Source of the DNA: a virus
Virus record (IMG/VR): IMGVR_UViG_3300001195_000001
Location: 1-7,519 of that record
Direction: 5' to 3' (one strand)
Length of the DNA stretch: 7,519 nt
Both the position numbers and the translations under genes were made by a program. The notes under the pieces were generated by a model. It saw nothing but the letters and a program-made list of their open reading frames with translations. It did no database searches and was not told the DNA's origin. Shown here one piece after another: positions 1 through 7,519 of the stretch (the stretch's first letter is position 1; the number at the start of each line of letters is the position of its first letter).

Positions 1-258
1 CTCCCGCTTAACCAGCAGAAGTTTTGGACCGAGCATCGCCACCGCGGGCTTGAAATCGTCATCATGGGTCAGGACCGCGATGATGTGCATAAGATCATCC
101 GCAGCCGGATCGAGGATATCGTTTACTTCCTCAAGCTGCAGGCGGTTGGGCGTCCCAATCAGTACAAGTGGGAGCAGCTGCAGAAGCAAGCCAAGGGCCG
201 ATTCGTGAAGATCGGTTCAGGCGTTCGAACCTATGAATCCAAGTACTTCGGTCTTTAC
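1..258. repeat. Terminal redundancy copy 1 (identical to 7262-7519), the signature of a circular molecule linearised with overlap
   Basis: Base-by-base comparison of the two window ends shows identity over 258 nt. The repeat lies inside the zot-like ORF and keeps its frame. Confidence 0.95.
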
Positions 259-957
259 TCGTCTGTCCGCCGTGAAGGGGTAGGGACCGGCGTTTACCAG
301 ACAGGGCGCACGAACGTCCTCAAGAACTCCAGAGCGCTTGCTATGGGCGTTCCTGCTGCCTTCGTTCTTGCCGGCTATGCCGTGTTTCACCTCATCGGTT
401 TCTTCGGCGGCAGCGGTCCTGTCAACTCTGAGCCGGCTACCAAGGTCACCGTCGCTAAGGCTGCACCTGTTGTCTACGAACAGCCTCCGGCTGGTCTCGT
501 CAACCCGGACCCGCCAACGCTGCATGTTGCCCAGTCAGCGCCAATTACCGACCAGGGCGAGGAGGTGCACGCCATCGACTATTTGGACAACCTCGCGCAG
601 AAGTACACCGTCAGGGCTACCGGCATTATCGACAGCCAGAAGGAAGGCAAGCGGCTCATGGGCCAGATCGAATTGCTCGACAGCTCCTACAACGTCAAGG
701 AACGCATGTACGTTCGTGAGATCGAGGCCATGGGCTGGACCGTCACACGAACCGGTTACGGGCTGCTGCTCGAAAAACAGGGCGTTTCCCATGTTGCCCG
801 GACATGGCCGCTCGACCTCAAGGGCCGAGTCAACGAACGCACGGTCAATAGCCTGTCAGGTTCCCCAAGCGGCGTGCCGCGGGGAACCGGACAGGCAGCT
901 TCCCGGCAATCCGAACTCGTCGTCGTCGGAACCGGCAAACCCGGTCACCTGTGGTGA
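1..957 (+). CDS. zot: Zot / pI-like assembly protein, 3' part (same gene as 6941-7519 after circularisation)
   Basis: The frame starting at base 1 is open and in phase with 6941 (position 1 = 7262). There is one predicted TM segment (ALAMGVPAAFVLAGYAVFHLIGFF), followed by a ~200-aa C-terminal domain as in pI/Zot proteins. The stop is TGA at 955-957. Confidence 0.85.
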   Translation, partial: LPLNQQKFWTEHRHRGLEIVIMGQDRDDVHKIIRSRIEDIVYFLKLQAVGRPNQYKWEQLQKQAKGRFVKIGSGVRTYESKYFGLYSSVRREGVGTGVYQTGRTNVLKNSRALAMGVPAAFVLAGYAVFHLIGFFGGSGPVNSEPATKVTVAKAAPVVYEQPPAGLVNPDPPTLHVAQSAPITDQGEEVHAIDYLDNLAQKYTVRATGIIDSQKEGKRLMGQIELLDSSYNVKERMYVREIEAMGWTVTRTGYGLLLEKQGVSHVARTWPLDLKGRVNERTVNSLSGSPSGVPRGTGQAASRQSELVVVGTGKPGHLW

Positions 958-973
958 TCCATTCAGATGGGGC

Positions 974-1004
974 GCTTCGCATAATCGGGAACGTTACGTT
1001 TAAT
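974..1004 (+). other. dif-like XerC/XerD site 1 (candidate attP arm): GCTTCGCATAA-TCGGGAACG-TTACGTTTAAT
   Basis: Each 11-nt arm matches the E. coli dif arms (GGTGCGCATAA / TTATGTTAAAT, recalled from memory) at 9/11 positions. The central spacer is 9 nt rather than 6. Confidence 0.6.
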
Positions 1005-1037
1005 CGTGTCGGGATGATGGTTGGCGGTCCCGGCGCG

Positions 1038-1065
1038 ATTTAATGTAACGTTGGTTATGCGCTGC
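1038..1065 (-). other. dif-like XerC/XerD site 2 (candidate attP arm), read on the minus strand: GCAGCGCATAA-CCAACG-TTACATTAAAT
   Basis: Canonical 11-6-11 architecture. Both arms match E. coli dif at 9/11. It is inverted relative to site 1 and 33 nt away. Confidence 0.65.
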
Positions 1066-1302
1066 GCTCCCGTTCCACTCGAAATCCCGCTTCACCTGGT
1101 TAAACAGGCACGTCTCTACGCGGCTGGTCGAGGTCCTAGCGACCTGGAAGCCGTACTCCACGTTCTGAATGATTACCCTAGGTTGTTCGCTGAGCTCCGG
1201 GAGCTTCGCCGCCGTGTTGCTCAGCTAGACGACGAGGGCGCCGCTCTGGACGCCCGTCTAACTGCCCTGCAGGACGCTTGCCGCGCTATTTTGCAGCTTT
1301 AG
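1057..1302 (+). CDS. Hypothetical ribbon-helix-helix-like DNA-binding protein with a C-terminal coiled-coil-like tail (81 aa from the ATG; the ORF is open from TTG 1021)
   Basis: The N-terminus VPLEIPLHLVKQARLYAAGRGPSDLEAVLHVLNDY fits the RHH pattern (beta strand, helix, G-x-S/T helix cap). The tail is RLFAELRELRRRVAQLDDEGAALDARLTALQD. No clear SD precedes the ATG, and the start is uncertain (1021 or 1057). Confidence 0.5.
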   Translation: MRCAPVPLEIPLHLVKQARLYAAGRGPSDLEAVLHVLNDYPRLFAELRELRRRVAQLDDEGAALDARLTALQDACRAILQL

Positions 1303-1303
1303 G

Positions 1304-1735
1304 TTAGGCGTCCTCACAGTCACGCTGTATCGCGATATAGCGCGGAATAACCGGGCCTGCATTTTTACTATCAACAAACGGATTTCCCGAATGAAGCATT
1401 GCGGAATGAATCAAATTATCCAGACGCTCATAAAGCTCGTATGAAATCGCCTCAGCCTGGTGAAGCGCATAGATAGCGCCGCTGCACCGGCCGTAGTAAG
1501 CCATCCGATTCAATGATTCCTGCTCGACACGAAGGCGAACAATGTCCGCCCAAAACATATGAATCCATCTGCCAGACATGCTTCCGCCTTGTTTTGATTT
1601 CACCCGCTCACGATAGGCGCGTTGCTTCTCGGCTGGCGTCATCGCCTTGCCGGTAGCAGGTCGCCCGCGCTTGCGCTTGGCTGGCTGCTCGTCCAGGGGG
1701 AGGGTTTTTGTTTGCTTGTCTGCTTGGTCGATCAT
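1304..1735 (-). CDS. Hypothetical protein with a basic AT-hook-like N-terminus (KRKRGRPATGKAMTPAEKQRAYRERVK) and a ~95-aa C-terminal domain of unknown function
   Basis: 143-aa ORF. Its ATG overlaps the stop of the upstream gene (ATGA at 1735-1732), giving translational coupling. It ends 1 nt from the stop of the convergent ORF 1057-1302. I recognised no catalytic motif. Confidence 0.65.
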   Translation of the reverse strand: MIDQADKQTKTLPLDEQPAKRKRGRPATGKAMTPAEKQRAYRERVKSKQGGSMSGRWIHMFWADIVRLRVEQESLNRMAYYGRCSGAIYALHQAEAISYELYERLDNLIHSAMLHSGNPFVDSKNAGPVIPRYIAIQRDCEDA

Positions 1736-1965
1736 GCTATGCGCTCCATAGATTCATCTATTGCATCGTTGATGAGTCCTGCCCAGTTTGCATAGCTCAC
1801 CTGGTTGCCGTTCCAGAATGCTGCCAGCATCCAATATGCACGCTGTGAAAGTTCGTTCCATTCCGCCAGGGTCAAGCAGGATTCGATTGCGTCCAGAAGC
1901 GCACTTGCACGCGCGTCGTTCAGCTCATCTTCTTGCATGTTGTAGATTTCGTCGGGATCTCTCAT
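1732..1965 (-). CDS. Hypothetical small, strongly acidic, Trp-rich helical protein (77 aa)
   Basis: A GGAG sits 8 nt upstream of the ATG (plus-strand CTCC at 1974-1977). I count 15 Asp/Glu against 4 Arg and 0 Lys, plus 4 Trp. It is the first gene of the two-gene minus-strand operon. Confidence 0.65.
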   Translation of the reverse strand: MRDPDEIYNMQEDELNDARASALLDAIESCLTLAEWNELSQRAYWMLAAFWNGNQVSYANWAGLINDAIDESMERIA

Positions 1966-1996
1966 GCGTCTTACTCCGTTCGTTGTTTATGGAGTA

Positions 1997-2026
1997 ATTA
2001 TAGTAACGTTACCACAAATAAGACAA
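1997..2026 (-). promoter_or_regulatory. Candidate sigma70 promoter of the minus-strand two-gene operon: -35 TTGTCT (2026-2021), 18-nt spacer, -10 TATAAT (2002-1997)
   Basis: The -10 hexamer is perfect and lies ~30 nt upstream of the ATG at 1965. The spacer contains the 10-bp palindrome GTAACGTTAC directly abutting the -10. Confidence 0.55.
2003..2012. promoter_or_regulatory. Perfect palindrome GTAACGTTAC, a candidate operator (motif copy 3)
   Basis: It lies inside the spacer of the candidate promoter. It shares the AACGTTAC core with 990-997, 1045-1052 and 2068-2075. Confidence 0.5.
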
Positions 2027-2067
2027 TTGTATGTTGCTATCGCGCTCGCACGTCTGATAGATAAAGC

Positions 2068-2082
2068 AACGTTACCTTAATT
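2068..2082 (+). promoter_or_regulatory. Motif copy 4, AACGTTACCTTAATT (candidate operator or XerD-arm-like half site)
   Basis: Same 8-nt core plus an A/T-rich tail as the other three copies. It lies ~45 nt upstream of the -35 of the minus-strand promoter. Confidence 0.4.
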
Positions 2083-2190
2083 CATCCTCGACCTCGCCGC
2101 TCGCGGCGATTAGTCGCCTGCACGCACTAGACTGATTGCGCCACTCTCACCGCGACGACACCCGCGCAGCGGCCTCAACCCAAGACAACG

Positions 2191-2228
2191 AAAAAGCCCC
2201 CGACGGCCTCAACGGCTCGTCAGGGGCT
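2191..2228 (-). terminator. Rho-independent terminator for minus-strand transcription
   Basis: 13-bp GC-rich stem (2195-2208 pairing with 2214-2228, with one mismatch and one bulge) and loop TCAAC. On the minus strand it is followed by TTTTT (plus-strand AAAAA at 2191-2195). There is no T-run on the plus strand. Confidence 0.6.
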
Positions 2229-2397
2229 CTTCGCGATCCTCGCTCTACTGTCCCGCTACAAACTCAACCCGCGCCCTGATTTGCCCAAACTAGGCCACTC
2301 CGAGCGCCTGCCTGGCAGTCTCCCAGGATCATCAGCACCGCTGCTGGTTAGGTCACGAAGTTGCGCAGGTTCCGCCGCGCTTTTCAGCTGGTTGGCG

Positions 2398-2421
2398 GTG
2401 GGGGTGTTGTTACACCCCCAC
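2398..2421 (+). other. Perfect 9-bp GC-rich hairpin GTGGGGGTG-TTGTTA-CACCCCCAC in the large intergenic region
   Basis: Read directly from the sequence. It lies just beyond the 3' end of the minus-strand regulator gene and is adjacent to a second hairpin. Confidence 0.6.
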
Positions 2422-2424
2422 TTT

Positions 2425-2442
2425 ACCCCGGATTCCCGGGGT
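2425..2442 (+). other. 7-bp hairpin ACCCCGG-ATTC-CCGGGGT
   Basis: Read directly from the sequence. It is in tandem with the 2398-2421 hairpin and overlaps the stop codon of the minus-strand gene by 1 nt. Confidence 0.55.
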
Positions 2443-2651
2443 CACTCGGTCTCTATCACCACATCGCCAGATGCATTGATCTGCACGTAAGGCACTGATC
2501 TATCAAGGATTTTGTGCACAAGCTCGCTGTCCCGCATCGGCGGCATGCCGCGCTTTACGAGTAACTTGTTGATTTCTATGCATTTTTGCCGGATCGCCTC
2601 TTGTTCGGCGGTAGTTAGGCGAATCGTTGCTGGCATTTTCAATTGGTCCAT
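2442..2651 (-). CDS. Small ribbon-helix-helix-like transcriptional regulator, divergent from the replication gene (candidate phage repressor, RstR-position analogue)
   Basis: The translation is MDQLKMPATIRLTTAEQEAIRQKCIEINKLLVKRGMPPMRDSELVHKILDRS, which fits beta strand plus two helices. It is divergently arranged from rep, with palindromes between them. The start is uncertain: TTG 2666, ATG 2651 or ATG 2636. Confidence 0.6.
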   Translation of the reverse strand: MDQLKMPATIRLTTAEQEAIRQKCIEINKLLVKRGMPPMRDSELVHKILDRSVPYVQINASGDVVIETE

Positions 2652-2683
2652 ATTGACACCCGTCAATCAGCATACGTGCATGC

Positions 2684-2693
2684 ATGTGATTTG
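2684..2693 (+). repeat. Direct repeat ATGTGATTTG, copy 1 (abuts the TGCATGCA palindrome)
   Basis: An identical 10-mer recurs at 2734-2743, exactly 50 bp away. Confidence 0.6.
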
Positions 2694-2695
2694 TG

Positions 2696-2723
2696 TTGAC
2701 GCATGCAAGTTCATCCGTATACA
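2696..2723 (+). promoter_or_regulatory. Candidate promoter of the replication/structural operon: -35 TTGACG (2696-2701), 16-nt spacer, -10 TATACA (2718-2723)
   Basis: The hexamers were read from the sequence and lie ~50 nt upstream of the rep ATG. A GCATGC palindrome (2701-2706) lies in the spacer. Confidence 0.5.
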
Positions 2724-2733
2724 TTCCGCCTCA

Positions 2734-2743
2734 ATGTGATTTG
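2734..2743 (+). repeat. Direct repeat ATGTGATTTG, copy 2 (abuts the 18-bp palindrome)
   Basis: Identical to 2684-2693. Confidence 0.6.
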
Positions 2744-2758
2744 CATGCATGCATGCAA
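2741..2758. promoter_or_regulatory. 18-bp perfect palindrome TTGCATGCATGCATGCAA, i.e. (TGCA)4, in the rep leader; a candidate operator or cruciform
   Basis: The sequence is self-complementary by inspection. It sits between the candidate -10 and the rep RBS (AGGGGAG at 2761-2767). Related palindromes are TGCATGCA at 2677-2684 and GCATGC at 2701-2706. Confidence 0.55.
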
Positions 2759-2772
2759 CAAGGGGAGCAGGG

Positions 2773-3921
2773 ATGTTTATCGATTGGCTTACGGTGTCTC
2801 AAGAGCATCAGCACGACCTTCCGGTTGTGTGCGATGTGATGACCATCACGATTGATACGAATACCAATGAAGTGCTCTCCACCCGCCAGCCTCGCTTTAA
2901 GCATGAGGCCAGCTATTCCACTTCGGTCACGATCCATGTGCAGGGGCGGAAAGTCCGTGTTGAAGGCAACCCAAGCCGGGTAGGTCGCCTGGACAACCTG
3001 TTCGGCTTCTCGACCATCGAGCAGTGCGTTTCGGTCTACAACCAGCTTCTGGCCGAGTACGGCCTGCCGGGCTTTACCCGCTGCACTCGCGTTGATCTGC
3101 GGGACGGCGCATCAGGTGCAAAGACCGGCGATCGCGTGGCAGACGGTGCCAAGATTGAGCGCATCGACCTCACCACTAACGTATCGGTAGGAGAGGGCAA
3201 CGTGTTGGCCTACCTGCGCGGCGTTTCCTCCCAGCGCATCGGGCACAGCATCGGTTTCCTGTATCCCAACGGCCGCACCGTTGCGTGGACCCCGAAGGGC
3301 AATGGCAAAGGCGGGCGGCTCCAGTATCGCAAGGCCTATGACAAGGCTTTCGAGCTGGACGAGAACCTTCTCCCGAAAATCAAGCGCCTCTATGGCGATC
3401 AATCCCCCGAGTTCCTGTATGTGCAGCGCGTCCGCGACTACTGCGCCCTTCATGGCGTTGTGCGGATGGAGCAGGAGCTTAAGAACGAATTTTTGCAGCG
3501 TGAATGCCTGGCCTATTGGGGCCTGTTTGACGAACGGCGTTTTGCCGAACTCCACGATGAGTTTTTGAGAATTGATGAGCGACTGAAGGTGACCGCAATG
3601 GACATTGTTTCCATTTCCCAGCAGCTGATGCTTGAGAAAGATGCCAAGGGCAAACCTATCTGCAAAACCACCCGTGCAGCTAACACCACCGCCATGTATG
3701 CGATTCAGTGGATGCACGGTCAGCAGTTCGACTTCAACAAGTCCGCCGTCCAGGAACACGCCGCTCGCCTCAACCGCATCGGCATCAACATCCGCAACGC
3801 CTGCGATACCTCGCGCTTCGCGCCGGTCTTCGTCCGTCAGGCTCGTGAAATCACCAAGTCCACGGTGCTGGCAATCCCCAGCTGGTATCAGCGCCCGAAC
3901 CATCTGCAGGTGGCCGCATGA
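2773..3921 (+). CDS. Rolling-circle replication initiation protein, phage gene II/X (CRI-like) family, 382 aa
   Basis: An AGGGGAG RBS lies 5 nt upstream of ATG 2773. The N-terminus MFIDWLTVSQEH and the motif VEGNPSRVGRLDNLFG resemble the conserved IDW and GNPSK...N.FG signatures I recall for filamentous-phage pII/RstA-type initiators. The gene is first in the + operon. Confidence 0.75.
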   Translation: MFIDWLTVSQEHQHDLPVVCDVMTITIDTNTNEVLSTRQPRFKHEASYSTSVTIHVQGRKVRVEGNPSRVGRLDNLFGFSTIEQCVSVYNQLLAEYGLPGFTRCTRVDLRDGASGAKTGDRVADGAKIERIDLTTNVSVGEGNVLAYLRGVSSQRIGHSIGFLYPNGRTVAWTPKGNGKGGRLQYRKAYDKAFELDENLLPKIKRLYGDQSPEFLYVQRVRDYCALHGVVRMEQELKNEFLQRECLAYWGLFDERRFAELHDEFLRIDERLKVTAMDIVSISQQLMLEKDAKGKPICKTTRAANTTAMYAIQWMHGQQFDFNKSAVQEHAARLNRIGINIRNACDTSRFAPVFVRQAREITKSTVLAIPSWYQRPNHLQVAA

Positions 3922-4094
3922 TCGTTAAATCCCAGTGCGCCGTTTGTGCTTGCGACGTCGACTACGACGTTCCTGCTCACGAACTCCACGATGCCCAGGA
4001 ACACGCCACTAGTGGTTTCAACTACTGCGCTGACCATGAGCTTAGTGGCTTTCCTGATCCTTTTTGGTTTTACCGCGTTGAGTTTTCTCAATGA
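3918..4094 (+). CDS. Hypothetical 58-aa Cys/His-containing protein (possible zinc-ribbon-like: CAVCAC...YCADH)
   Basis: Its ATG overlaps the rep stop (ATGA at 3918-3921) and its own stop overlaps the next ATG (ATGA at 4091-4094). It is below the ORF-track size cut-off. An alternative reading frame (3946-4446) is also open, so confidence is limited. Confidence 0.45.
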   Translation: MIVKSQCAVCACDVDYDVPAHELHDAQEHATSGFNYCADHELSGFPDPFWFYRVEFSQ

Positions 4095-4177
4095 TCGCCG
4101 CAACCGTCTCCCTGCTCGCAACCCTCGCCGGTGGCGCCATCGCGCTCTACCTCGTGCGTTTGGAGTTCCGCCCATGA
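4091..4177 (+). CDS. Hypothetical 28-aa single-TM peptide (MIAATVSLLATLAGGAIALYLVRLEFRP)
   Basis: It is bounded by ATGA overlaps at both ends (4091-4094 and 4174-4177). It has a hydrophobic core with a charged C-terminus, like the small inovirus membrane or minor-coat peptides. Confidence 0.35.
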   Translation: MIAATVSLLATLAGGAIALYLVRLEFRP

Positions 4178-4446
4178 TCCAGATGACCGAAAGCAAGCCA
4201 GGGGAGGGCATGACCCTCCGCACCGTCAGTTTCCAAGGCACCCAGCTCACCAGCGGCCAGCGTCGCCGCCTTCAAGAGCAACAGCAGGCCCGGCCATTCG
4301 TGAACCCGGTTCTGCAACAGCAAGTAAACGAAACCCTGGCAGCGCTCGAAGCTCGCCAGTCCGAGGGCATCAAGCCCGAACGCCAATGGTTCTTGGAACG
4401 CCAAGAGCGTGGCACTCCCTGCGTTGCCGACCTGTTCGGCTTTTAA
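4174..4446 (+). CDS. Hypothetical Gln/Arg-rich protein (90 aa)
   Basis: ATG 4174 is coupled by ATGA to the upstream peptide. An alternative start is ATG 4210, just after AGGGGAGGG. It is in the frame of track ORF 3946-4446. The stop is TAA at 4444-4446. Confidence 0.55.
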   Translation: MIQMTESKPGEGMTLRTVSFQGTQLTSGQRRRLQEQQQARPFVNPVLQQQVNETLAALEARQSEGIKPERQWFLERQERGTPCVADLFGF

Positions 4447-4458
4447 GAGGCAATACCC

Positions 4459-4758
4459 ATGGCTATGACTATCAAGATCGAAACCACCGGCAACTTCCGT
4501 ACCGGTACCGCTGCCAAGTCTGGCAAGCCCTATTGGATGGCCGAAGCCTACGCGCACCTGCCGGGTGTCCCGTACCCGCAGAAGTTCAGCTACTACGCCG
4601 CCTCACAGCAGGAAGTGCTGCCGGTCGGTCATTACGAATGTGACGTTTCCTGCTCGATCAAGGATGACCGTATCCACTTTGAGGTGGACCCGCGCCAAGC
4701 CCGCCGCATTGCCAACCCGGCGCCCGCTGCTGTCGCGCCTGCCAAGGTTGCCGGCTGA
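4459..4758 (+). CDS. ssDNA-binding protein, gene V-like (OB-fold helix-destabilising protein), 99 aa
   Basis: An AAGAGG RBS lies 8 nt upstream. The translation MAMTIKIETTGNFRTGTAAKSGKPYWMAEAYAHLPGVPYP...LPVGHYECDV parallels Ff gVp (IKVEI...RQGKPY...EYP...APGLYTV) and the Pf3 ssDNA-binding protein as I recall them. It sits between rep and the coat genes. Confidence 0.75.
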   Translation: MAMTIKIETTGNFRTGTAAKSGKPYWMAEAYAHLPGVPYPQKFSYYAASQQEVLPVGHYECDVSCSIKDDRIHFEVDPRQARRIANPAPAAVAPAKVAG

Positions 4759-4760
4759 CC

Positions 4761-5036
4761 ATGGCGCTCTGCGTAGAACTGGTCGGCTCGACCCTCACCG
4801 CCGTTGGTGAGTATTCCGACGCCTGCTCGGGCTACGCACTTATGACCGCGCAAGAGTTCGCCAGTACGCCAACGCTGGCGGCGCTCTTCGCAGTACCGGA
4901 ACCAGAGACTGTCCAGACCGCTTTCGCTGCTGGGCTGACTCTGCCGCTAATGCTCTGGCTTTCCGCCTGGGCGTTCGGTGTTGTAGTGAGTTACATCAAC
5001 TCACGCACCGATGACACTGTAATCAACGAGGAGTAA
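4761..5036 (+). CDS. Hypothetical small membrane protein (candidate minor virion or assembly protein, g7/g9 position), 91 aa
   Basis: It starts 2 nt after the gV stop. It has one strong TM segment (LTLPLMLWLSAWAFGVVVSYI). It lies immediately upstream of the major coat gene. Confidence 0.55.
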   Translation: MALCVELVGSTLTAVGEYSDACSGYALMTAQEFASTPTLAALFAVPEPETVQTAFAAGLTLPLMLWLSAWAFGVVVSYINSRTDDTVINEE

Positions 5037-5041
5037 CAAAC

Positions 5042-5176
5042 ATGGACTTTTCCGCAATCGTAGGTGCTGTTGACGCTTCCACTATCGTGGCTGCTATTGC
5101 TGCCATTGCTGCAATCAAGGTTCTGCCCGGCGTCGCTAAATGGGGCTTCAACAAGGTCATCGGCTGGTTCCGCTAA
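5042..5176 (+). CDS. Major coat protein (pVIII-like), 44 aa, without a cleavable signal peptide (Pf3-type)
   Basis: Not in the ORF track (<60 aa). A strong GAGGAG RBS lies 8 nt upstream. The translation is MDFSAIVGAVDASTIVAAIAAIAAIKVLPGVAKWGFNKVIGWFR: acidic N-terminus, hydrophobic core, basic/aromatic C-terminus. It is followed by a terminator and precedes the pIII-like gene. Confidence 0.8.
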   Translation: MDFSAIVGAVDASTIVAAIAAIAAIKVLPGVAKWGFNKVIGWFR

Positions 5177-5197
5177 GAACCACGCTGACGCCTCGCC

Positions 5198-5228
5198 GGA
5201 GGCCCCTTCGGGGGCCTTCTTCGTTTCA
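5198..5228 (+). terminator. Rho-independent terminator/attenuator after the major coat gene
   Basis: 9-bp stem GGAGGCCCC / GGGGCCTTC with a TTCG tetraloop (5198-5219), followed by TTCGTTTC. This is the classical inovirus position, which sets the high coat : low pIII transcript ratio. Confidence 0.7.
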
Positions 5229-5277
5229 GGGGACAAACAATGCTAATTCAATTCGGACTGTTCTTTTGGGGGGCGTT

Positions 5278-6639
5278 ATGCGCTTGGGCAATTATTTCTG
5301 GCTTTTCTTCGCGCTAGCTTTCTTTCCTGCGCATGCGTATTCAGCCGATTACTATTGGCTATATGGAAGTGTAACCACTCAATATTCGGACGCCGAAACT
5401 GCCTGTAGTAGTAACCTTCCTGCCAATACTTCCACTTATCGTTATCGACACTCACGTGTAGAGAAGTCGAGTTCTCCAACTCAGTATTGGTGTTATGTCA
5501 TTCGCACCACAATTTCTACCGGCACTGAAACTGAGCTTTATATCATTGGCGGCACACCACGGCGCGCCAATAGATATGGTGATACTTGTCCGTCCGGTAC
5601 TGTTTACGATGAACTAATAGGTAAGTGCGTAGTACCAGATAATCCGTGTGCTGAAAAAGCAGGTCTTGAGACTGGATTCTCAAAAGCAGGTACGGCGCCT
5701 GACGACTTTATGAATATTTCCAGTAACGGTTACGGAATACCTCAGCGCCAGGGCTGTAAGGATGGTTGTGCTGTAGAGCTGACTGATATGCGCTGCAAAA
5801 CGTTTACTAGCGGCCCTTATATCTGCCGTGGTCTTTCAGGTTTTACCGGTCAGCAATGCTCCTCCACTGGTACGGGCACTCAGATTGATGAAGATGCCAA
5901 CCAGAATGTCGATCCCGAAACTGTAAAAGAGGACAAGCCGTGCGTTTATACGGCGGATGGTGATAAACAGGTTTGCGAGTCGAAAAAGAGCGAGGAAAAC
6001 ACCGGCCAGTCCTGCGGTACTGTCAACGGGGTTGAAACATGTGTGCCCAAGGCGCCGGATAAGAATGGGATCGACATCCGTACTGAGGCGACTACCACGA
6101 CCAATCCAGACGGCACGACTACCACGACGAAAAAAGACACTGCCACTACGACAACCTGTAAGGGCATAAAGAACTGCACAACCACAACCACAACTGTTAC
6201 GACCACCACGACGAAGAACGCCAATGGCCAAACCACCGGCTCTAGCTCTACCTGCTCAGGTCCTCAATGCCCGAATAAGAGTGGCAACCCTGACGCAGAC
6301 GGCGATGGCTTCGGTGATTGTGTTGGTGGCAATTGCGGCGGTGCTATGCCCGGTGGTTCAGAAGTTGGAGCGCAAGACTGGTTTACTCCCGGCGAAGATA
6401 CCTTTGGCAGTGTCCTGACTCAGTTTTCGCAGAAGGTTCAACTACTGCCGGTTAGTGTTCAAACAACCAAGTTCCTCACTTTTAATGCTTCTGGATCATG
6501 CCCAAGCTGGAGTGTCTCAACTTGGGTTTTTGACTTCGATTTTGATCAGTTCTGCACTGGTGATATTCCTTGGTCTGCAATCGCGGCGGTCATCATCGCG
6601 GCTGCTTCTTTTCTCGCATTCCGTATTGCTTTCATGTGA
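5278..6639 (+). CDS. pIII-like adsorption / minor coat protein (receptor-binding), 453 aa
   Basis: Signal peptide MRLGNYFWLFFALAFFPAHAYSA. There are Cys-rich N-terminal domains, a poly-Thr linker, a Gly/Asp-rich segment and a C-terminal TM anchor IPWSAIAAVIIAAASFLAFRIAFM. It lies between the coat and pVI-like genes. Track ORF start 5140 is rejected because it overlaps the coat gene and terminator. Confidence 0.75.
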   Translation: MRLGNYFWLFFALAFFPAHAYSADYYWLYGSVTTQYSDAETACSSNLPANTSTYRYRHSRVEKSSSPTQYWCYVIRTTISTGTETELYIIGGTPRRANRYGDTCPSGTVYDELIGKCVVPDNPCAEKAGLETGFSKAGTAPDDFMNISSNGYGIPQRQGCKDGCAVELTDMRCKTFTSGPYICRGLSGFTGQQCSSTGTGTQIDEDANQNVDPETVKEDKPCVYTADGDKQVCESKKSEENTGQSCGTVNGVETCVPKAPDKNGIDIRTEATTTTNPDGTTTTTKKDTATTTTCKGIKNCTTTTTTVTTTTTKNANGQTTGSSSTCSGPQCPNKSGNPDADGDGFGDCVGGNCGGAMPGGSEVGAQDWFTPGEDTFGSVLTQFSQKVQLLPVSVQTTKFLTFNASGSCPSWSVSTWVFDFDFDQFCTGDIPWSAIAAVIIAAASFLAFRIAFM

Positions 6640-6647
6640 GGTGAGCA

Positions 6648-6941
6648 ATGGAGATTTTCACACTTGAATTCTGGAAAGGCCTCTGGGACGACTTCACTGA
6701 GTATCTTTCAGATCTTCCGATACAGTTGCTTAAAAAGTTCCTAGATGGTGTCTTAGAGGTTCTTGGAACTATCCAGCCACCGGCGTTCATGGCTACACCT
6801 ATCAGCGATCACCTCGGCCCGACGATGGAGTTCATCGGGTTTTTCCTGAGTCAGTCCGGTATCAGTCAGGCCTTCAGCATCCTGCTTGCTGCCGTGCTCT
6901 TTCGCCTTGCTCGCAAGGCCATCACCCTGGGGCGCTGGTAA
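6648..6941 (+). CDS. pVI / Ace-like minor coat protein, 97 aa
   Basis: A GAGGTGA RBS lies upstream. Size and position (immediately before zot, TAATG overlap) match. The hydrophobic C-terminus FIGFFLSQSGISQAFSILLAAVLFRLARKAI and the N-terminus FWKGLWDDFTEYL resemble my recollection of CTXphi Ace (97 aa). Confidence 0.6.
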   Translation: MEIFTLEFWKGLWDDFTEYLSDLPIQLLKKFLDGVLEVLGTIQPPAFMATPISDHLGPTMEFIGFFLSQSGISQAFSILLAAVLFRLARKAITLGRW

Positions 6942-7519
6942 TGGCTATTCACTTTCATGAAGGCCTGCCGGGTGCTGGCAAGTCCTATGAGGCGTGCGTC
7001 TATCACATCCTGCCCGCTCTCAAGTCCGGACGGCAGGTCATTACCAATATTCGCGGCGTCAACTGGGACAAGTTCGCTGAGCTTCTAGACGAGCCCGTTG
7101 AGTATGTTCGCATGCTGCTGCTGTACATCGAGCCGGCCGAGCAGGACGGGGAGGCCGCCGACATTGAGCGCGTGAAGAACGAGTTCGCCGATCGCACGCC
7201 TGATAACGCGATGATCGTCTGGGACGAGATTCAGGATTACTTCCCAAGCGGCAACTACAAGCTCCCGCTTAACCAGCAGAAGTTTTGGACCGAGCATCGC
7301 CACCGCGGGCTTGAAATCGTCATCATGGGTCAGGACCGCGATGATGTGCATAAGATCATCCGCAGCCGGATCGAGGATATCGTTTACTTCCTCAAGCTGC
7401 AGGCGGTTGGGCGTCCCAATCAGTACAAGTGGGAGCAGCTGCAGAAGCAAGCCAAGGGCCGATTCGTGAAGATCGGTTCAGGCGTTCGAACCTATGAATC
7501 CAAGTACTTCGGTCTTTAC
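6941..7519 (+). CDS. zot: Zot / pI-like phage assembly P-loop NTPase, 5' part (runs off the window end and continues at base 259 of the circle; the full gene is 6941->7261 joined to 1->957, 425 aa)
   Basis: The ATG at 6941 overlaps the upstream stop (TAATG). The translation begins MAIHFHEGLPGAGKSYEACVYHILPAL. Walker A GLPGAGKS lies at 6962-6985 and a Walker B-like MIVWDE at 7211-7228. The gene sits last in the morphogenesis module. It is absent from the ORF track only because it has no stop inside the window. Confidence 0.85.
   Translation, partial: MAIHFHEGLPGAGKSYEACVYHILPALKSGRQVITNIRGVNWDKFAELLDEPVEYVRMLLLYIEPAEQDGEAADIERVKNEFADRTPDNAMIVWDEIQDYFPSGNYKLPLNQQKFWTEHRHRGLEIVIMGQDRDDVHKIIRSRIEDIVYFLKLQAVGRPNQYKWEQLQKQAKGRFVKIGSGVRTYESKYFGLY
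7262..7519. repeat. Terminal redundancy copy 2 (identical to 1-258)
   Basis: Same comparison as copy 1. The offset is 7261 nt. Confidence 0.95.

Follow-up and report, generated by a model that had tools for sequence, protein, structure and literature searches.

A predicted single-stranded attachment site of the CTXphi type in an integrase-less inovirus of the Pseudomonadaceae

How does a temperate filamentous phage that has no integrase enter the chromosome of its host? The question is raised by the inovirus in IMG/VR record IMGVR_UViG_3300001195_000001, of which we analyzed positions 1 to 7,519 (7,519 nt; hereafter the window). Window positions 1-258 are an exact repeat of 7262-7519, and the window sequence is therefore a circular genome of 7,261 nt. 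A scan of all of its open reading frames (ORFs) against Pfam and PHROGs gave no match to an integrase, transposase, or resolvase, in agreement with the original prediction made from the letters of the window. The same scan detected no protein similar to DUF3653/XafT. Immediately downstream from zot there are two inverted sequences that resemble dif, the chromosomal site used by XerC and XerD, which are recombinases of the host. Based on the in silico results described below, we infer that the region containing these sequences (969-1070, + strand) is very probably a CTXphi-type single-stranded attachment site, attP(+), that is used by host XerC and XerD for integration of a temperate inovirus of the Pseudomonadaceae. 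The window phage is a member of a large new clade of CTXphi-type integrative mobile elements that exploit Xer (IMEXs), the kind itself being known.

Each of the two sites has an XerC arm, a central region, and an XerD arm. Site 1 (974-1004, + strand) reads GCTTCGCATAA-TCGGGAACG-TTACGTTTAAT, with the XerC arm GCTTCGCATAA at 974-984, a central region of 9 nt (TCGGGAACG) at 985-993, and the XerD arm TTACGTTTAAT at 994-1004. Site 2 (1065-1038, - strand) reads GCAGCGCATAA-CCAACG-TTACATTAAAT, with the XerC arm GCAGCGCATAA at 1055-1065, a central region of the canonical 6 nt (CCAACG) at 1049-1054, and the XerD arm TTACATTAAAT at 1038-1048. When read back from the window, these coordinates and sequences were as the original prediction gave them. 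Each of the four arms matches the dif of Escherichia coli (GGTGCGCATAATGTATATTATGTTAAAT; PMC2731167) at 9 of 11 positions; the same count had been claimed earlier, and it holds for the published dif. We also compared the sites to the dif of likely hosts, xxTTCGCATAA-TCTATA/TGTATA-TTATGTTAAAT. In several cases the XerC arm of site 1 was identical to that of the host dif (11/11), and the XerD arm of site 1 matched TTATGTTAAAT at 9 of 11 positions. A degenerate dif motif (CGCATAA-N6-10-TTAYRTTWAAT) occurred twice in the window, at these two sites, and was not found in any of 200 dinucleotide shuffles.

The two sites are predicted to pair with each other on one strand. We folded 960-1080 as single-stranded DNA (ssDNA). 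The + strand had a free energy of -33.3 kcal/mol, compared to a mean of -16.8 kcal/mol for shuffled sequences (z -6.4), and none of 200 shuffles was as good. The fold of the - strand was weaker (-26.4 kcal/mol, z -4.3). The + strand gave an imperfect hairpin of ~100 nt, as had been proposed, with helices at 978-984/1055-1061, 990-1000/1042-1052, and 1002-1015/1027-1040 and an outer extension at 969-975/1064-1070. Within it, the XerC arm of site 1 pairs with that of site 2 (974-984 with 1055-1065), and the XerD arm of site 1 pairs with 1038-1048, which is the bottom strand where the hairpin is duplex; one of these pairs is G.T, and there is a single T.T mismatch. At the top of the hairpin is a stem-loop (1005-1037) with a stem of 1005-1015/1027-1037 (8 Watson-Crick and 3 G.T pairs) and a loop of 11 nt (1016-1026); in the modelled fold this stem-loop keeps both sites in register. 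In the central region of site 1, AACG (990-993) pairs with 1049-1052, and either 987-989 or 986-989 is bulged. The earlier description of an internal bubble of five bases opposite two has to be revised, in that the minimum-energy fold adds the pairs T985.G1054 and C986-G1053 and leaves GGG (987-989) as a bulge. The more general claim, of an interruption in the half of the central region nearer to the XerC arm, is borne out in relatives: the second central position was unpaired in 22 of 32 distinct hairpins.

We found that this architecture is conserved in many related phages. A search of IMG/VR with a pattern that fixed only the cores of the arms identified 63 contigs with the two-site architecture. 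Relatives found independently, on the basis of Zot, also have it (L002, L003, L004, L007, and L011). Two of these, MZ474489 (L002) and MZ474491 (L003), are inoviruses from bird cloacae in GenBank that share the architecture and differ in the sequence of the stem. Five deposited phages of Pseudomonas aeruginosa (WX_Y, Pf 36-2, 42-1, 97-1, and 17897) have a two-site hairpin as well. The spacer of site 1 is 9-11 nt in all relatives (9 nt in the window), which is non-canonical and over-long for a duplex Xer site.

The hairpins covary. In an alignment of 32 distinct hairpins, 92.2% of the cells were standard-paired, compared to 28-41% when the partners were slid by 1-3 columns. The covariation score was 0.267, versus 0.125 for shuffles (none of 500 reached it). 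Twelve pairs had changed on both sides, and 8 of the 12 are in the apical stem, a part that the search pattern left free. In addition, there was a bias toward one strand. Cells with G.T outnumbered those with A.C, 94 to 16 overall (for the apical part, 48 versus 1), and some wobbles were kept in most variants (column pair 26-74 in 26/32 and 37-62 in 27/32). The + strand was the more stable one in all 32 variants (mean of -28.3 versus -22.8 kcal/mol). Because G.T wobbles are conserved and every variant is more stable as the + strand, these results point to selection on the fold of the + strand.

Part of the hairpin also occurs elsewhere in the window. The octamer AACGTTAC is present in 5 copies (0.07 expected), two in attP (990-997 and 1045-1052) and three in palindromes, TAGTAACGTTACC (listed at 2003-2012 and 2068-2075). 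The palindromes are intergenic and beside the minus-strand gene at 1732-1965, and are possibly operators. We considered binding of a repressor at attP via the octamer and rejected it. In the relative L036 the palindromes have switched to GTTACGTAAC and attP keeps GTAACGTTAC; that is, the two do not covary. A functional link between the octamer in attP and the palindromes is doubtful because the palindromes of L036 change while attP does not.

Related prophages were found at dif. A search of a genome collection with Zot yielded one locus (L004); most of the junctions came from the IMG/VR pattern matches and from Zot homologues. At least 13 related prophages are located at the canonical dif of the host, as the original prediction had anticipated: L004, L011, and at least 11 IMG/VR contigs in which the hairpin is on the left and is followed, 5.8-8.0 kb to the right, by a directly oriented canonical dif. 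The hairpin was always on the XerC side of dif, and none of these prophages was found elsewhere in the host chromosome. The left junctions consist of a host-type XerC arm followed directly by the central region of phage site 1. No junction was at site 2 among the related prophages. The last gene ahead of attP in the window phage is zot (its 3' part, 1-957), placing it at the right end of a prophage.

The cleanest case is L011, a P. aeruginosa genome that was found with a Zot 56% identical to that of the window. On the left (attL), ...GATTCGCATAA is joined to TGTGCAGACG-TTACGTTAGGC (TTACGTT...), followed by the stem and site 2. On the right (attR), directly after zot, GCTTCGCATAA is joined to TGTATA-TTATGTTAAAT. 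The arm of attL together with the central region and XerD arm of attR makes up exactly the published dif of strain PAO1 (GATTCGCATAATGTATATTATGTTAAAT; PMC2731167). L004 is a prophage in a metagenome-assembled genome from the Pseudomonadaceae, and its Zot is 95% identical to that of the window. It is flanked by modABC/modE on one side and by genes for curlin, a FAD-dependent pyridine nucleotide-disulphide oxidoreductase, and uvrC on the other. Its homology to the window ends at 985 on the right; on the left, it restarts at 974. There is a canonical dif (GCTTCGCATAATGTATATTATGTTAAAT) 185 bp past the right phage end.

Five prophages (L013, L019, L025, L049, and L065) share one host locus, and the empty site (attB) of this locus is present in two large metagenome contigs as ...catgtg AGTTCGCATAA TCTATA TTATGTTAAAT ttgatatagg.... 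A glutathione reductase encoded beside it has 100% identity to the enzyme of Stutzerimonas (Pseudomonas) stutzeri, and by sequence the attB lies in a genome similar to that of S. stutzeri. The arms thus match the dif of identified hosts, both PAO1 and this attB, as had been predicted. One of the five (L025) encodes a reverse transcriptase/maturase of a group II intron at 3531-5078, ~1.2 kb away from the dif locus that is occupied. Its best named matches are from S. stutzeri and P. aeruginosa and are uninformative for the identity of the host.

The shared locus made it possible to map the exchange. Left junctions have outer arm bases of host type (AGTT, GATT, or ATTT). Right junctions have GCTT or GGTT, the outer bases found in circular forms of the phage. 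Because left junctions keep host-type and right junctions phage-type outer bases, the exchange occurred somewhere from position 3 of the arm to the second base of the central region; that is, within 976-986 in window coordinates. The original prediction had placed the junctions within 985-993 or 1049-1054. The observed interval is consistent with a crossover at the border between the XerC arm and the central region of site 1, with cleavage at 984^985. The closest relatives fit this pattern. L014, with ~88% identity to the window phage across 5.6 kb, has a right end in which window 931-984 (54 nt with one mismatch) is fused to host TCTATA-TTATGTTAAAT and host DNA, the sequence joined on being TCTATATTATGTTAAAT. 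The left junction of L013 contains the window hairpin, altered by one substitution.

Two other kinds of relatives were found. In L014, L041, L057, and L066 the 3' end of a phage precedes the hairpin, and in one IMG contig (L040/L067) the hairpin is present twice, ~6-7 kb apart. These may be tandem prophage arrays, which CTXphi, with its irreversible integration, requires for making virions by rolling-circle replication, or a replicative form co-assembled with a prophage. The phage in L005 (JGI 3300011831 contig), a comparison case with a Zot 74% identical to that of the window, has a gene for a tyrosine integrase and lacks dif-like sites. This difference from the window phage suggests that integration systems have been exchanged as modules between close relatives.

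How might the hairpin be used? In the circular + strand, site 1 (974-1004) would anneal to inverted site 2 (1038-1065), the register being held by the stem-loop at 1005-1037. This would create one duplex Xer site with an XerC arm (974-984/1055-1065), an XerD arm (994-1004/1038-1048), and a central region with 6 nt on the bottom and 9 nt on top, 3-4 of the top bases being bulged beside the XerC arm. Host XerC and XerD would bind the folded site and bring it into synapse with chromosomal dif. XerC would then cut the top strands after ...CGCATAA (984^985) and exchange one pair of strands; the incoming top strand of dif would pair with the central region of site 2 (1049-1054). The resulting pseudo-Holliday junction would be converted to a prophage by replication or repair. 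The expected attL contains the host XerC arm, the phage central region, the XerD arm of site 1, the stem, and site 2. In the expected attR, the XerC arm is that of the phage and is followed by the central region and XerD arm of the host; this attR would be a functional dif. The use of ssDNA as a substrate, catalysis by XerC only, and resolution by replication are inferred because they follow the CTXphi paradigm.

The central regions indicate which hosts may be used. The first central base is T in all members. The second central position of site 2 was the same as that of the host dif in 16 of 18 prophages (few and phylogenetically non-independent): C with hosts whose dif has the center TCTATA, and G with TGTATA hosts. 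The central region of site 1 matched the host center in only 3 of 10 prophages of TCTATA hosts. In CTXphi, the bases beside the XerC arm decide whether integration is possible (PMC4246890), and the agreement between site 2 and the host dif parallels this compatibility rule. The host of the window phage is predicted to be a bacterium similar to Stutzerimonas with a dif center of TCTATA, because site 1 of the window starts with TC and site 2 reads CCAACG.

Taken together, the fold, the location of relatives at dif, the match of the arms, and the absence of a recombinase support the original proposal of a CTXphi-type attP. Several observations weigh against it or limit what the evidence can carry. 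The sequence of the window phage itself was not found in integrated form, only relatives were. Packaging of the + strand is assumed from the orientation of the genes. The invariance of the arms was set by the retrieval pattern and is not evidence; only the stem at the apex, both central regions, and the outer bases of the arms were free to vary. In members from P. aeruginosa both strands fold about equally well, so the bias toward the + strand is not universal. Homology between the center of site 1 and that of the host is often limited to the first T, and site 2, with its canonical spacer of 6 nt, might work as a duplex site. Lastly, the structure of the junctions alone fits recombination between duplex site 1 and dif, as in VGJphi, equally well.

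This last point leads to an alternative that we consider unlikely, in which the double-stranded replicative form recombines at site 1 alone, and site 2 and the hairpin serve another purpose or are remnants. Exchange between site 1 and dif by XerC would give the same junction at the border of the XerC arm and central region, and phages of the VGJphi type do integrate in this way with a non-canonical central region (PMC4246890). However, the spacer of site 1 is 9-11 bp in every member, and attP1 of CTXphi is unsuitable as a duplex site because of its extended central region (PMC4246890). Furthermore, a duplex attP leaves unexplained why a second site, inverted and at a distance of 33 nt, is strictly conserved, and it does not account for compensatory changes in the stem, the G.T bias of the + strand, and the finding that the center of site 2, not that of site 1, tracks the host dif. 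We favor the hairpin over a duplex site because of the over-long spacer of site 1, the conserved and covarying site 2 and stem, the bias toward the + strand, and the tracking of the host by site 2.

Could the hairpin instead do something other than integration? In the Ff phages, large imperfect intergenic hairpins after the morphogenesis genes serve as the packaging signal and the minus-strand origin. The hairpin described here directly follows zot and is specific to the + strand, and it could primarily have such a role, with its likeness to dif being secondary and integration occurring by another route. We regard this as quite improbable. The conserved parts are exactly the XerC and XerD arms, the prophages end inside the hairpin and at dif, and there is a better candidate for such a role in the large non-coding region at 2397-2442. 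This region folds as ssDNA into two adjacent hairpins (z -5.1). The first, GGTGGGGGTG(T/C)TGTTACACCCCCAC, hardly varies across 39 loci, among them those of distant P. aeruginosa and marine relatives, and the second covaries (CCCCGG/CCGGGG, CCGTGG/CCACGG). We consider these hairpins to be candidates for the replication origin or packaging signal. They are similar in size to the packaging hairpins of 20-26 nt found beside the origin in integrative phages of Xanthomonas (10.1101/2023.12.30.573655). A second role of the attP hairpin in packaging or as a minus-strand origin, beside integration, is possible. The simplest alternative, a chance inverted repeat or a plain transcription terminator, would account for a strong stem-loop right after the stop codon of zot, but it is effectively refuted: there is no T-run 3' of the stem, the dif motif was absent from all shuffles, the covarying structure is present in at least 60 genomes, and prophages end at dif.

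The rest of the genome (55.5% G+C) is that of an inovirus (Inoviridae, Tubulavirales): it is small and circular and encodes, in order, Rep, an ssDNA-binding protein, the major coat protein, g3-like and g6-like proteins, and Zot/pI. Rep (2773-3921) has the domains Phage_CRI and G2P_X_C, the ssDNA-binding protein (4459-4758) belongs to PF17878, and the major coat protein (5042-5176) to Inovirus_capsid. The g3-like gene (5278-6639; phrog_4352 and phrog_815, PHROGs families of unknown function) owes its assigned role to gene order, and its product, the adsorption protein, has threonine-rich imperfect repeats (ACGACCACCACGACG...; window 6088-6226) that are probably a flexible linker. It is followed by a g6-like gene (6648-6941; phrog_974) and by zot (gene I; 6941-7261 and 1-957, + strand; 425 aa), whose product matches Pfam Zot (PF05707, 8.4e-32) and phrog_197. 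Three small genes on the opposite strand (1304-1735, 1732-1965, and 2442-2666) have no assigned function. A small ORF next to the hairpin (1057-1302, + strand; 81 aa, phrog_13909, no Pfam family) starts inside the XerC arm of site 2; that is, TTATGCG, the + strand of this arm, supplies its ATG. The ORF is kept in L002, L003, L004, and L013, and after integration it is the first prophage gene beside attL.

Deposited phages matched the window only partially by megablast, and the Zot of the best deposited phage was ~35% identical. An exact-protein search with Rep had no match for the form that starts at the upstream ATG; for the form with the downstream start it matched only a near-identical phage in a 6.4-kb contig (ENA ERZ27315047 k141_14480; L001), in which the g3-g6-zot segment is partly inverted relative to the window. 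This contig is probably an assembly chimera.

Our results also bear on published prophages of P. aeruginosa. Filamentous prophages of Pseudomonas have been described as integrase-dependent (PMC7549136). Evseev et al. (2023) reported groups of Pf prophages that lack an integrase (groups 4-7) and suggested that they "may use host-encoded integrases"; dif, Xer, and a hairpin were not recognized in that work (PMC10675462). We found the two-site hairpin in OQ354711 (WX_Y), OR621023, OR621025, OR621019, and OR621020 (L076-L080). The four records of Evseev et al. are bounded by a repeat of 11-12 nt, TTCGCATAATG(T), that consists of the XerC arm of dif and the first central bases; WX_Y is not. Like the window phage, Pf 36-2, 42-1, 97-1, 17897, and WX_Y share the genome plan and have the two-site hairpin at the left end. 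They differ from it in Zot (~33-35% identical, measured for WX_Y and Pf 97-1) and in the apical part of the hairpin, which is longer and branched. Judging by these sequence features, the integrase-less Pf prophages and WX_Y fall into one broad attP family with the window phage, and a CTXphi-type mechanism probably accounts for integration of the published prophages. We found no paper linking them to dif or Xer in the part of the literature that was covered, and an earlier description is possible.

Many relatives carry additional DNA between zot and attP or dif. We found cassettes of 110-330 bp, one or two per phage, that are bounded by repeats of GCTTCGCATAA; the window has none. They are located at 11295-11480 in L004, 10475-10660 in L019, 7711-7896 in L066, 7367-7554 in L041, 6791-7219 in L049 (two units), 427-760 and 7962-8294 in L057, and 3791-3900 in L008. 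The cassettes in L004, L019, L049, and L066 (and a variant in L041) open with a third dif-like site, GCTTCGCATAA-TGGAGA-TTATGAAATGA, and the ATG in this site starts an ORF of ~52 aa. The cassette in L008 has an ORF of 32 aa that encodes a hydrophobic peptide. We considered the 185-bp insert of L004 as a separate IMEX. The insert is also found directly upstream of the attP arm in L041 and L066, and this suggests that the insert belongs to the genome of the phage.

The cassettes could have been gained and lost through the arms or by the action of Xer. It is a tentative notion, and one we would not bet on, that a large and essentially undescribed lineage of inoviruses of the Pseudomonadaceae, including the Pf prophages without an integrase in P. 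aeruginosa isolates from cystic fibrosis, integrates as folded ssDNA via XerCD and that the XerC-arm repeat on the attP side is a platform for capture of cassettes. If true, gain and loss of mini-cassettes by Xer or through the arms would be an integron-like feature that is new for IMEXs.

CTXphi is the one experimentally proven case of integration of a phage as a single strand, and the findings here would extend the reach of this mechanism to abundant inoviruses of Pseudomonas and Stutzerimonas. They offer a concrete and testable route of integration for Pf prophages of P. aeruginosa that lack an integrase. The variation within the family (in spacers, in the sequence and length of the stem, and in centers matched to TCTATA or TGTATA) can be used to test the rules by which Xer is hijacked. 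In addition, the XerC arm of dif can be used to mark the prophage boundary in annotation.

How does this attachment site compare to those already known? The attP(+) of CTXphi of Vibrio cholerae was reportedly described by Val et al. in 2005. CTXphi has two inverted sites, attP1 with a spacer of 12 nt and attP2 with a spacer of 5-7 nt; the + strand folds, XerC alone carries out the exchange, and integration leaves a remade dif at one flank of the prophage, with the two attP sites at the opposite flank (PMC3089051, PMC4246890, PMC5357621). The window phage is likewise an inovirus without an integrase, with two inverted dif-like sites 3' of zot that are predicted to fold together in the + ssDNA. 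In both, one site has an over-long spacer and supplies (here, by prediction) the top strand that is cleaved, and the other has a near-canonical spacer. As in CTXphi, prophages of relatives occupy dif, the XerC side having both attP sites and the opposite side a regenerated dif. The bases beside the XerC arm correlate with the center of the host dif in the few prophages compared, and there are arrangements that may be tandem arrays.

There are also clear differences from CTXphi. The hairpin of the window phage is ~100 nt with 33 nt between the sites, compared to ~150 nt and ~90 nt in CTXphi. The spacers in the family are 9-11 and 6 nt (rather than 12 and 5-7 nt), and the XerD arms have TTACGTT in place of TTATGTT. 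The XerC arm of site 2 also supplies the ATG with which a conserved ORF begins. The host bacteria belong to the Pseudomonadaceae, the window phage and CTXphi are not related in sequence, and the system of the window phage is known here from sequence alone.

Two phages outside Vibrio, CUS-1phi of E. coli O18:K1:H7 and Ypfphi of Yersinia pestis, have been assigned to the CTXphi type on the basis of their attP features (PMC3089051, PMC4246890). As with the window phage, their integration at dif as ssDNA was predicted from sequence; by their descriptions, they are of another phage lineage and have other hosts. The inoviruses and satellites of the VGJphi type (VGJphi, VEJphi, and fs2) and the TLCphi type (TLCphi, phiLf, Cf1c, and XacF1) also integrate at dif by means of XerCD. 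Both of these types have a single duplex attP and integrate reversibly, whereas the window phage has two inverted sites. Rather than the single duplex attP with a center of ~7 bp that defines the VGJphi type, it has a spacer of 9 nt in the site at which the junctions form. Elements of the TLCphi type lack a proper XerD arm, and their exchange begins with XerD and requires an activation factor (XafT/DUF3653); in contrast, both XerD arms in the window match dif at 9 of 11 positions. The attC sites of integrons exist as sites only as folded single strands that have extrahelical bases; a single strand takes part in the exchange, and the product is resolved through replication. The attP proposed here would share with attC the folded single-stranded site, the exchange of one strand, and resolution by replication, and it differs in that integrons use IntI, follow another sequence logic, and are not carried by a phage.

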